Positions 13,623 to 16,815 of a DNA stretch of 17,109 bases are shown one piece after another. The DNA lies in contig NW_021825040.1 in assembly GCF_006345805.1 (NCBI RefSeq), positions 1 through 17,109 on the forward strand, in the 5' to 3' direction. The DNA is from Octopus sinensis (Eukaryota). The notes beneath the pieces are model-generated. The model made no database searches. It was not told where the DNA came from and was given only the letters and a program-made list of their open reading frames with translations. How positions within the stretch are numbered: position 1 is the stretch's first letter; each line of letters begins with the position of its first letter. A program made the translations under genes and the position numbers.

Positions 13623-13866
13623 GGTGGCGAGCCAGCGGAATCGCTAGCACGTTGGACGAAATGCTTAATGGTATGTCGCCCGTCGTTACGTTCTGGGTAG
13701 TAAAGAAATAGGTATTTCATGTGCCGCTACGTTCTGAGTTCAAATTCCGCCGTGCCAGACTTTGCCTTTCATCTTTTCGTGGTCGATAAAATAAGTACGA
13801 GTTGAACACTGCGGTCGATATAATCGATTCCTCCCCCAAGCTGCACTTGTGGCAACAAATTTGAAA
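13623..13866 (+). mobile_element. SINE family B (tail type 2) with a 15-nt type-1 tail tip inside its head
   Basis: Head 13623-13695, GGTAGTAAAGAAATA at 13696-13710, body resumes at GGTATTTC 13711. Confidence 0.88.
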
Positions 13867-13881
13867 TAAATATTACAATTT

Positions 13882-14362
13882 GGAGCAGTAGTGGCTGTGT
13901 GGTAAGAATATTGCTGCTCAACCACATGGTTCCGGTTTCCGTCCCACTGCGTGGCACCTTGGGCAAGTGTCTTCTACTATATCCTCGGGCCGACCAGTGC
14001 CTTGTGAGTGGATTGGTGGACGGAAAACTATAAGAAGCCTGTCTTAAATATATATATATATATATATATATATATATATATATATATATATATATATATA
14101 ATATATATATATATATATATATATATATATATATATATATAAATATATGTATTTCTGTGCCTGTGTTTGTCTCCCCCGCCTTCGCTTGAGAATAGATGTT
14201 GATGTGCTTACGTACCCGTAACTTAGTGGTTCGGCAAAAGAGAGCGCTAGAATAAGTACTAGGCTTAGGAAGAATAATTCCTGGGGTCGATTTGCTCGAC
14301 TAAAGGCGGTGCTGCAGCATGGTCCCAGTCAAATGACTGAAACAAGCAAAAGTATAAAAGAA
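13882..14362 (+). mobile_element. SINE family A, full length, with expanded internal (TA)n (~14047-14148)
   Basis: A box TGGCTGTGTGG, CCTTGGGCAAGTGTC, 3' GGGGTCGATTTGCTCGAC module. Confidence 0.92.
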
Positions 14363-14373
14363 TGTTTTCATCA

Positions 14374-14536
14374 GGCGGTGAGCGAGCAGATTCCTTGCCG
14401 CATTGACAACAATACTTAGCGGCATTTCTTCCAACCTCACATTCTGAGTTCAAATGTCGCTCAGATTATATCTGAGGTCGATATAATCGACTTGATCCCT
14501 CGTCCGAAATTGGTGGCCTTGTGCCAAAATTTAAAA
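14374..14536 (+). mobile_element. Decayed SINE family B with internal deletion
   Basis: GGCGGTGAGC..TTCTGAGTTCAAAT..GGTCGATATAATCGACT..GGCCTTGTGCCAAAATTT. Confidence 0.8.
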
Positions 14537-15404
14537 TTAATATTTTGTATCATTATTTTTTCGTTTTCGTTTGTCACTGACAAAACAGGATTGCTACCCT
14601 CACTGGAGAATCTCACTATCACCACCACAGTTTTATTCCACCCTTTCAATAATCGATAATGCCAATACAAATGTCTTCCGCTAGGGCAGTGATTATCAAA
14701 TGACAAATACTCACGCCCCCAGCAAAATATTAGCGATATTTTTTGCCTTCTTGCTTCATTTTATTAATGAGAAGACACCATTGAGCTGGCATCCCAACAT
14801 TTTTTCTTTCTTCGCCATGGTGTCGGAAAAGTTTAAAAAAGTTGAAAACCATCTTTATTTTTATTAAACATAGCAATTTGTTCGCTTCCCCCTTCTTCAA
14901 TCCTCACAGCCTATTGGAAACTTTGTGTAACAGGGAAGATATCCACTTTTCACTCCACCCCTCCACCCATTTTCCCATTCAGTTACTAAATATGTTATAA
15001 ATTTAATGAGTCATTAAAAATTAATTTACAACTAATAAAATTAACCACCAACCAATGAAGTACCTCTGCGTGGTCTCTCGATCTGTTAGAAATAGCAGTC
15101 AAAACCATTTTTAGAATTACATTCTGCCGCCTTAAAGACAGAAAGGATACACTGGATTAATGTTGACTTAGGAATACCTCTAGAAAGACGGAATATTCAT
15201 GTTTGAAACATCTTTAATCATAGGTTTGCTCAATAGGAGTTGACTGGAGGACAGAGGAGCTAAACATATACAATTTCTTCACAAGTTATCAAAGCTAAAC
15301 TGAGCCTAACTCACTGAATCGATAATTATTGACAATAACGGATTTCTGATATAAGCCAATGAGCGCGCCATTTGGGGGAGGATAAAGAAACAGCCGAATG
15401 TGTC

Positions 15405-15751
15405 TATTTCTTTACTACCCACTAGGGGCTAAACACAGAGGGGACAAACAAGGACAGACAAATGGATTAAGTCGATTACATCTACTCCAGTGCGTAACTG
15501 GTACTTAATTTTTCAACCCCGAAAGGAATGAAAGGCAAAGTCGACCTCGGCGGAATTTGAACTCAGAATGCAGCGGCGGACGAAATACCTATTTCTTTAC
15601 TACCCACAAGGGGCTAAACACAGAGAGGACAAACGAGGACAGACAAACGGATTAAGTCGATTATATCGACCCCAGTGCGTAACTGGTACTTATTTCATCG
15701 ACCCCAAAAGGATAAGAGGCAAAGTCGACCTCGGTGGAATTTGAACTCAGA
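15405..15751 (-). mobile_element. Head-to-tail dimer of headless SINE-B type-1 units (15405-15589, 15590-15751)
   Basis: TATTTCTTTACTACCCAC starts at 15405 and 15590 (period 185); the minus-strand junction is AAAGAAATA|GGTATTTCGTC. Confidence 0.92.
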
Positions 15752-15760
15752 GGTTGCTCG

Positions 15761-15859
15761 TTTATTCTTTTCTACTCTTGGTACAAGGCTCGAAATTTTT
15801 GGGGAGGTGGGTGCCCAGTCGATTAGATCGACCCCAGTTCGATACTGGTACTTAATTTA
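15761..15859 (-). mobile_element. SINE family B type-2 tail fragment
   Basis: Reverse complement aligns with 16724-16815. Confidence 0.8.
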
Positions 15860-15919
15860 AGGTGGTTCGTTTATTAATTCAACCGAATACTTTATTTTAT
15901 CCACTTTTTATTCTTATTT

Positions 15920-16319
15920 CTTTTATTCTTTTACTTGTTTCAGTCATTTCACTGCGGGCATGCTGGAGCACCGCCTTTTAGTCGAGCAAATCGACCCGGA
16001 GACTTATTCTTTGTAAGGTTAGTACTTATTATATCGGTCTCTTTGGCTGAACCATTAAGTTACAGGGACGTAAACGCACCAGCTTCGGTTGTCAAGCTAT
16101 CTTCAGGAGACAAACACAGACACAAAAACACACACACATATATATGTACATATATACAACGGACTTCTTTCAGTTTCCGTCTACCAAATCCACTCACAAG
16201 GCTTTGGTCAGCCCGAAGCTATAGTAGAAGACACTTGCCCAAGGTGCCACGCAGTGGGACTGAACAAGGAACCATGTTGTTGGTAAGCAAGCTACATACC
16301 ACACAGCCACTCCTGCGAC
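15920..16319 (-). mobile_element. SINE family A, full length
   Basis: Reverse complement of 4954-5374 and 13882-14362; TAAAAGAA-type tail repeats. Confidence 0.93.
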
Positions 16320-16326
16320 TAATTCT

Positions 16327-16483
16327 TTTTACCGACTCTGGAAGTATGAAAGATAAAGTTGACTGCAGCGGGATTTGAACTCAGAACGTAAAGCGCTGTA
16401 ACTAAATAACTGTTATAAGAAAGGCACAGGGTCTGAAATTTGAGTAAATGTCAGTCGATCAGACCGACTGCAGTATGTAACTA
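16327..16483 (-). mobile_element. Decayed SINE family B fragments (body 16327-16393, tail 16422-16483)
   Basis: GATTTGAACTCAGAACGTAAAG; AGGCACAGGGTCTGAAATTT..GTCGATCAGACCGAC. Confidence 0.65.
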
Positions 16484-16490
16484 GAACGGA

Positions 16491-16815
16491 GGCGGCGAGC
16501 TGGCAGAAACGTTAGCACGCCCGGCGAAATGCGTAGCCATATTTCGTCTACCGTTACGTTCTGGAGGTCGATGTAATCAACTTAATCCGATTGTCTGTCC
16601 TTGTTTGTCCCCTCTGTGTTTAGCCCCCTGTGGGTAGTAAAGAAATAGGTATTTCGTCTGTTTTTACATTCTGAGCTCAAATTCCGCCGAGGTCGACTTT
16701 GCCTTTCAACTTTTCGGGATCGATAAATTAAGTACCAGTTGCGGACTGGGGTTGATCTAATCGACTAGGCCCCTCCCACAAAATTTGGTGCCTTCGCCTA
16801 AAGTAGGAAAGAATA
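16491..16815 (+). mobile_element. Chimeric SINE family B: head, 84-nt type-1 tail, type-2 body and tail
   Basis: Head to 16563, tail 16564-16647 ending GGTAGTAAAGAAATA, body resumes at GGTATTTCGTC 16648. Confidence 0.9.

Follow-up and report, generated by a model that had tools for sequence, protein, structure and literature searches.

Evidence that an octopus SINE inserts into its own tRNA-like head with relaxed specificity, and a proposal that read-through RNA guides it there

The window analyzed here is one whole small contig of Octopus sinensis (NW_021825040.1 of assembly GCF_006345805.1, 17,109 nt), and it contains copies of a short interspersed element (SINE) whose tail is joined to a site inside the transfer RNA (tRNA)-like head of the same SINE family. 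The element is 231 nt long, dispersed and of high copy number, with 71,143 exact tails in the 2.72 Gb of genome searched; positions are numbered after a young natural copy of 231 nt. Its head carries an A-box-like TGGCAGAAACGT at position 11 and a B-box-like GAGTTCAAATTCC, which was read by eye. ARAGORN and Rfam returned no tRNA or other match for the head in the window and the SINE; presumably it resembles tRNA-Arg. The tail is common to the 3' termini of long interspersed elements (LINEs), which is characteristic of tRNA-derived SINEs. A Helitron or other rolling-circle DNA element was ruled out by the target-site duplications and by the tail shared with LINEs.

A first-pass annotation of the window had described a junction, GGTAGTAAAGAAATA/GGTATTTC, at 13710/13711 (+), 15590/15589 (-) and 16647/16648 (+). 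All of these coordinates were confirmed, as were the tail pieces of 15 and 84 nt at the two plus loci, each directly after GTTCTG, and the identity of 19/26 in both of the 26-nt pairs that bracket these pieces. The junction joins position 231, the end of the tail, to position 48 of the SINE head (TAGC/GGTATTTC). The location of a fourth tail end at 15405 (-) was also correct, but the likeness of the following GACACATT to the target did not hold, as it misfits the D-R-W-A motif of the other ends, and no duplication was seen there. The units concerned are listed in Table 1, together with two further copies of the family. The junction forms a short inverted repeat, GAAATA-GG-TATTTC (window positions 13705-13718, also 15582-15595 and 16642-16655), and the SINE head is predicted to fold into a long hairpin, with site 48 at the edge of its loop.

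Table 1. Copies and parts of the SINE in the window (T1, T0b and T0a, tail types)
Feature	Position	Strand	Remarks
Old monomer of the SINE family	2323..2521	-	Head uninterrupted (empty site)
Monomeric T1 copy, positions 1-218	13372..13589	-	Its C48 head is of the type that hardly ever occurs at junctions
SINE head, positions 1-73	13622..13695	+	Older type (T at 19), 75% alike to the young copy; probably the head of the resident
Last 15 nt of the LINE-derived tail (T1)	13696..13710	+	Ends in GAAATA
SINE from position 48 (GGTATTTC)	13711..13868	+	Tail of the oldest type (T0a); end placed approximately
Second T1 unit, positions 48-231	15405..15589	-	Provides the fourth tail end, beyond which the DNA is unrelated
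5'-truncated T1 unit, positions 70-231	15590..15751	-	91% alike to the reference copy
Positions 1-73 of a young head (C at 48)	16491..16563	+	94% alike; arrived with the T1 unit
T1, positions about 148-231	16564..16647	+	Lacks positions 74-147 through a deletion or skip, with CTG microhomology
Older-type SINE (T0b tail) from position 48	16648..16817	+	

In exact pattern counts over the genome, 27,111 of the 71,143 exact tails run into GGTATTTC, with the reversed-pattern controls at 0 and 1. This frequency is far beyond chance. A second type of junction joins the tail to head position 15. The SINE family and its position-48 boundary were also present in the sequencing reads of the other organisms examined (two sets, four runs each); in this comparison, aimed at empty orthologous sites, contigs from the reads stopped at the SINE and repeat contigs predominated. 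Contrary to what had been supposed, the specificity is not strict, since 62% of the exact tails lack the exact junction (38% carry it) and the non-self targets share only a motif of 4-5 nt. The element is therefore unlike a strictly site-specific one of the R2 kind, with nearly all copies at one target. Nor are the 27,111 junctions all independent events, because multimers are transferred and arrays grow locally.

A typical array consists of one head and n units of positions 48-231, with up to 10 units, the last of which often carries an older tail, T0b or T0a. Dimers and longer arrays lie inside one outer duplication; multimers move as units and arrays expand locally. To this extent an earlier caveat about a dimeric master copy was justified, whereas a single dimeric master is ruled out. 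The 46,204 exact heads comprise 19,236 with C at position 48 and 26,968 with G. C48 heads are younger (3.7% vs 4.9% divergence), account for 17 of 77 first heads and almost never form the junction: C is the starting base in about 10 of 100 cases sampled from 1,311 non-G junctions. At several loci (L117-L125) a full SINE is preceded by tandem repeats that contain the head alone (about 65 bp; positions 1-63 plus AA). At two further loci, 98% alike (L238, minus, 2021-2400; L419), the SINE head up to position 63 is fused to one LINE-like 5' sequence, possibly as a SINE-headed LINE. A second SINE family is present in the window in several copies (4744-5368, 8398-8822, 13877-14361 and 15927-16324), including an inverted pair 42 nt apart, and elsewhere the SINE studied here is also inserted in the head of this second family at GGTAAG/AGAAG (L019, L078, L090). 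Two near-perfect local inverted duplications occur in unique-looking DNA of the window (3943-4060 and 4317-4409).

The bracketing 26-nt pairs and the break after GTTCTG had been read as recurrent features of insertion. Neither proved general: only 2 of 17 short-gap matches in the genome break after GTTCTG and the breaks vary, and true duplications measure 10-20 nt. The 16538/16648 pair was rejected as a duplication. Its copies differ at the subfamily-diagnostic bases 48, 61 and 63, and the upstream copy lies in a young C48 head, the downstream copy in a T0b element. The 13670/13711 pair, in an old-type head, is compatible both with a deletion and with a 15-nt truncated insertion that left a long duplication; its seven differences in 26 nt exceed what the age of T1 predicts (p about 0.01-0.04), and long duplications do exist (L247, with common variants up to base 114).

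Landing sites were compiled from 126 non-redundant array ends, 121 of which run into unrelated DNA; six overlapping loci were left out. The initial 16 Mb of one contig supplied the bulk of the samples, the majority of them chosen by tail or junction pattern, which counts as a limit on the proposal made below. A duplication of 10-20 nt that starts with the base after GAAATA is carried by 67 of the 121 non-self ends, the other 54 being without a duplication call. The target motif is degenerate (D-R-W-A), with R at +2 in 60/67, T at +3 in 53/67 and A at +4 in 52/67 ends; upstream of the nick, R occurs at -3 in 54/67 and a base other than G at -1 in 62/67. The non-self targets have in common only this motif of 4-5 nt, about 4 bits. 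GGTA is found at the start of 26 of the 121 ends compared to a background of 0.27%. The non-self targets resemble the junction, and the 3' flanks are not uniform.

The landing sequence depends on the tail subtype. GGGT tails precede GGTA or TATA, whereas GGGC tails precede AGAA or AATA; GGGC tails showed no GG and 18 A starts, compared to 29 GG and five A starts for GGGT tails (p=8e-10). A hand count of 100 listed GGGCAAT flanks gave 41 that begin with AGA and three that begin with GG, and GGGTAAT flanks mostly have GGT at the start. The same split is seen genome-wide at the two self-sites, with 27,111 junctions at 48 and 170 at 15 for GGGTAGT tails, and 626 at 48 and 1,505 at 15 for GGGCAAT tails (odds ratio 383). 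A matrix built from the non-self targets alone, after omission of five doubtful rows of the 67, ranks position 48 top within the SINE for GGGT tails and position 15 top for GGGC tails. At a few ends (L062, L052, L041) the GG or GGT on the 3' side is absent from the upstream copy of the target.

Self-insertion at position 48 was established in two classes of loci. The double-head class was defined as a full head within 18 nt after the site-48 motif, among 36,602 full heads, and comprised 155 matches at site 48 compared to 35 at a control motif and 27 at site 15. Nested full-length copies at site 48 were fetched in 30 rows (24 loci), with the junction downstream in 18 loci. Their duplications are ordinary and start exactly at 48. 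At six loci (L115, L116, L127, L128, L129 and L136) non-consensus bases private to the resident are present in both copies of a 13-17-nt duplication; the inserted piece at L136 is a dimer that moved as a unit.

The second class comprises 22 seamless arrays, of 69 arrays, that have T0b as their last unit. Their heads are 9.4% diverged compared to 5.0% in T1 monomers (head-minus-body excess, p=0.005) and more often carry T at position 19 (10/22 vs 16/96, p=0.008). The outer duplications of T0b arrays and T0b monomers show 1.50 and 1.44 mismatches per 11 nt, compared to 0.71 for T1 (p=0.002), after duplications with more than three mismatches had been dropped (kept: 48/64, 17/25, 9/17 and 18/23); against this comparison stands the fact that anchoring is harder at the 3' end of T0b, so that mismatches are inflated in T0b arrays and T0b monomers alike. 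The first and the last unit show extra similarity at positions 56-66 (ratio 0.74, p=0.001), an effect that fades by about 110 and is absent beyond. In these arrays the head, the outer duplication and the last unit thus look older than the inserted unit. The pattern fits a young unit placed in an older resident with homology-guided joining of the 5' end, and an origin in situ is thereby demonstrated for the T0b class and the double-head class only. From the matrix about 0.85% self-hits would be expected; in a sample selected by head, the junction is present in 17 of 53 full-length T1 heads. This excess calls either for a boost by long homology or for multimers that were amplified, and the T0b class speaks for an origin in situ of much of it.

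The expectation that a LINE ends in the same tail was confirmed. Such LINEs were located via a tail-like fragment that led to LINEs with a zf-RVT domain, followed by a search with that LINE family (30 loci); 15 of the 30 loci end in the tail motif, the best with 27 of 28 nt identical. Full-length members encode open reading frame (ORF) 1 with a weak zf-CCHC and an ORF2 of 1128 or 1131 amino acids with PF03372 (apurinic/apyrimidinic (AP) endonuclease), PF00078 (reverse transcriptase, RT) and PF13966 (zf-RVT), and leave duplications of 17-18 nt (3/3). As PF03372 occupies the N-terminus, the earlier alternative of a LINE with a restriction-like endonuclease does not apply. This architecture is common to the wider L1 clade. 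Protein searches with the partner ORF2 yielded no named Tx1 reference, the nearest matches of named source being fish proteins of 29-31% identity. The label Tx1 is partly our assumption from sequence motifs; its second basis is the occurrence of L1-Tx1 families reported in Octopus vulgaris. Judged by sequence, a Tx1-like LINE enzyme with the shared tail is the likely mobilizer of the SINE.

A candidate group consisting of the top PF00078 matches (30 loci on small contigs and 20 chromosomal ones) was rejected, as no LINE among them ended in the SINE tail. The top RT matches on small contigs (L248-L277) are near-identical young LINE families unlike the chromosomal ones, and these contigs may be from another organism. 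In two of four RTE-like copies (L281:1626-3318; L297:1337-2710) a SINE 3' end adjoins the 5' truncation point, possibly by template switching; behind the copy in L281 there are also 14 nt from the end of a SINE tail. Related LINE families that share the tail core have (ATT)n or (TATC)n at their ends and often lie within such repeats (L318-L347; L055, L143, L150). One zf-RVT LINE of the wider partner group ends a few bases before a full U1 small nuclear RNA (snRNA) gene (Rfam, 125 bits; L368:2228-2391, plus strand) and possibly represents a U1-targeting family, at this one locus.

Two LINE families of the partner type were compared by their flanks. Family X3 (25 exact ends) has mixed, heterogeneous flanks. 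Family X5 (130 ends), which is 97% alike over 2.2 kb, shows a preference for multicopy targets, with two unrelated exact ones among loci that were picked by an 8-nt flank. One is SINE head position 15, occupied in 9 of 10 fetched loci, with residents of different subtypes. The other is one exact site in a palindromic repeat that is young and has arms of about 340 bp (10/10 fetched; L407-L416, L406), where the junction base differs between copies; this class could partly be due to hitchhiking. At seven of the position-15 loci a 1.75-kb X5 derivative has its 5' end immediately after the first bases of the SINE. X3 and X5 flanks with a terminal A fit the SINE target motif in 2/20 cases compared to 93/121 SINE ends, and prefix sharing among LINE flanks, taken as a mark of target inheritance, is weak (4/325 pairs, p=0.035). 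Tandem arrays of the 1.75-kb derivative are located in the SINE head at position 15 (G000:C5:14113399-14122212, C2:193350638-193362807, C3:86301010-86308034 and others), and full-length LINEs occur in 5.4-kb tandems with a 19-nt spacer (L405).

We propose, with a probability of roughly 0.55, that the SINE enters position 48 of its own head by target-primed insertion steered by the pairing of read-through RNA, and that this would constitute a self-reinforcing loop. The SINE tail matches the 3' terminus of LINEs that encode AP endonuclease, RT and zf-RVT domains, and both elements leave duplications of similar length directly after GAAAT(A). LINEs of the partner group carry no poly(A) and stop at a constant position behind an AATAAA-type signal, and the enzyme is thus likely to start inside an RNA that runs into the flank. 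Reverse transcription would begin at a fixed point behind the tail, and the RNA beyond it would be the flank of the source copy and pair with the primer strand. Each donor would thereby favor targets that resemble its own flank. A donor in a SINE head would carry GGUAUUUCGUC... and could pair with any other head over many bases, so that a head-borne donor would favor heads. The landing sequence depends on the tail subtype, and the best match within the SINE for each subtype is its own self-junction (48 or 15). The 5' end would mostly be joined through homology to the resident, which would give the seamless order of head, unit and remainder of the resident that a subset of arrays displays; sometimes a second full head with a 13-17-nt duplication would be left. 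In addition, multimers would travel as units and arrays would grow locally, both of which were observed in part. RNA pairing accounts for the subtype split and its agreement with the self-junctions, for the surplus of seamless arrays and for the occurrence of X5 at two targets. The bias upstream of the nick shows that the enzyme contributes to target choice.

A wider version of this proposal, which we hold tentatively as possible rather than probable, is a Tx1-like machine without a fixed address. It would have a fixed start behind the shared tail and use the read-through RNA of the donor as a guide, so that the target would be inherited from the donor flank. The SINE would have become locked onto its own head (48 and 15) with self-feeding multimers, LINE copies would be retargeted in the same way, and the younger C48 heads would have left the pool of targets.

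Several observations weigh against guidance by read-through RNA. The double-head insertions (155/36,602, 0.4%) are not above the prediction from the preference of 4-5 nt; the excess lies in the seamless arrays, and multimer sources could also supply it. In the sampled arrays the sharing of private variants by adjacent units is not concentrated at 49-66, so that first and last units made the more informative pair, and T1-ending dimers (n=26) gave no significant duplication signal. Mismatches between the duplicate copies are only mildly raised at +1 to +3 (7, 9 and 5 of 67), several of these rows being probable mis-calls. The SINE tail looks like a mosaic of two LINE families, as its last 28 nt match the partner-type LINE and the 29 nt further upstream match another family. 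The suggestion that a site-specific LINE mobilizes the SINE was right in so far as an L1/Tx1-type LINE shares its tail and a sister family sits in the SINE head at position 15, but no LINE copy was found at SINE position 48 or GGTA in 26 flanks, among 100 listed X5 ends or in a further search. For GGGT tails the LINE families examined are candidate mobilizers at most.

The bias upstream of the nick (R at -3, non-G at -1) is beyond the reach of a 3' read-through, and like the modest number of double-head insertions it favors a choice of target by the endonuclease alone, the chief competing explanation, which we consider unlikely. Several Tx1-like subfamilies, each with a relaxed nicking preference (GGTA, AGAA or TATA), would have moved different tail subtypes at different times; the head would hold the best matches by chance, and rare self-insertions would have become efficient sources of multimers. 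That many related LINE families have distinct ends or targets, namely (ATT)n, (TATC)n, the palindromic repeat and, in one copy, the site before the U1 gene, agrees with this explanation, as does the fact that target choice in the Tx1 clade is credited mainly to the endonuclease (PMC4494074). However, two exact targets without relation to each other are occupied by a single LINE family (X5), the preferences of both subtypes fall on the junctions of the SINE itself, and the T0b arrays look as if formed in situ at a rate far above the prediction from the motif.

The proposal of RNA-guided insertion at 48 also has to be weighed against explanations that dispense with a nick at this site. The junction could have been carried in multimer RNA and primed at any nick in a resident via long homology, as an RT-driven conversion of monomers to multimers, or it could have arisen by template jumping from 48 to the tail. 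We judge this distinctly improbable, even though long arrays (L237, L089, L090) share private variants along their full length inside one outer duplication, which speaks against a general origin in situ, and C48, common among exact and first heads, rarely starts a junction. Junction units of T0b type are also T1-like at base 61 (C in 10/29) more often than T0b heads (C in 2/29), but this shift is not significant within the matched T0b subtype (p=0.23). Transfer in multimer RNA does not account for the ordinary duplications of the double-head insertions, which begin exactly at 48, and by itself leaves the GGTA bias at unrelated targets unexplained. It overlaps with the proposal made here, since both need RNA-DNA pairing. 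An origin from one or a few dimeric masters, followed by deletions and local tandem duplication without any targeting, is very improbable and largely refuted. Dimers and longer arrays inside one outer duplication, the dimer inserted as a unit at L136 and the short-gap forms with scattered, microhomology-type breaks would suit such masters. However, the last units are diverse, with three tail types (T0b units differ pairwise by 17%, with a minimum of 5.4%), variants of the first and last units were not evidently paired when six diagnostic sites were inspected by eye, nested copies carry duplications private to the resident, and non-self targets resemble the junction.

Self-targeting is real, largely as first guessed but relaxed instead of strict, and guidance by RNA is a proposal. 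Target choice of LINEs with AP endonucleases is usually credited to the enzyme. In the octopus, tens of thousands of natural insertions link the landing sequence to the tail subtype of the donor and to its own junctions, and X5 occupies two unrelated exact targets, so that the share of Tx1-type specificity set by RNA read-through becomes directly testable. If it is set by RNA, this would explain quick target switching by such LINEs and would represent a naturally occurring insertion system, programmed by the flank, that could be of interest for genome writing. Even if the enzyme alone is responsible, the system provides a SINE and a LINE that share their tail, a SINE serving as its own safe harbor and a route from a SINE to tandem arrays.

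The octopus SINEs OK, OR1 and OR2 were reportedly described by Ohshima and Okada in 1994. The likeness of the present SINE to them is our assumption. MetaSINEs (PMC4824008) and, presumably, OK/OR1/OR2 are alike to it in the tRNA-like head, the central domain and exchangeable tails; the sections of the MetaSINE account consulted mention neither targeting nor multimers nor a partner LINE. No description of self-targeting octopus SINEs was found in the literature searched, which excluded Repbase Reports, most subscription journals, figures and supplements. Squamate SINE-derived satellites and Dip multimers (PMC10702118) also form tandem arrays from SINE parts, with many copies in multimers. They are credited to recombination or consist of full-length SINEs, whereas the octopus units begin at a retrotransposition target and many arrays arise by insertion. 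In RTE-related SINEs, repeats at the 3' end of the RNA are linked to the base with which the duplication starts, and sister SINEs that differ in their ends also differ in pattern (PMC6007223). These SINEs have fixed microsatellite ends, an overlap of one to two bases and duplications mostly up to 13 nt, whereas the octopus SINE has no fixed repeat, matches that reach 4-7 nt, duplications of 10-20 nt and a non-RTE partner. For R1Bm and the I factor, as cited in the same paper, RNA read through into the target anneals and improves the accuracy and efficiency of priming, and in R2Ol a longer read-through of the target raises insertion (PMC6795142). The endonuclease of R2Ol fixes one site in the ribosomal DNA and RNA assists, whereas in the octopus SINE the read-through is proposed to choose the sites and to be inherited from the flank of the source.

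The closest known case is crocodilian SINEU, whose target preference is credited to Tx1-clade LINEs (Tx1-Mar) with the same target and in which 13-90% of copies are at the target (PMC4494074). The two systems share a relaxed specificity and tandem insertions that sandwich a duplication. SINEU has an snRNA head and a Mariner DNA transposon as target, whereas the octopus SINE has a tRNA-like head, for which Rfam gave no snRNA match within the window, and its own head as target. It further differs in its two sites tied to tail subtype and in its seamless, head-less multimers. Thus the octopus SINE is not a member of SINEU, from which it differs in head and target, but it works like SINEU with Tx1-Mar.

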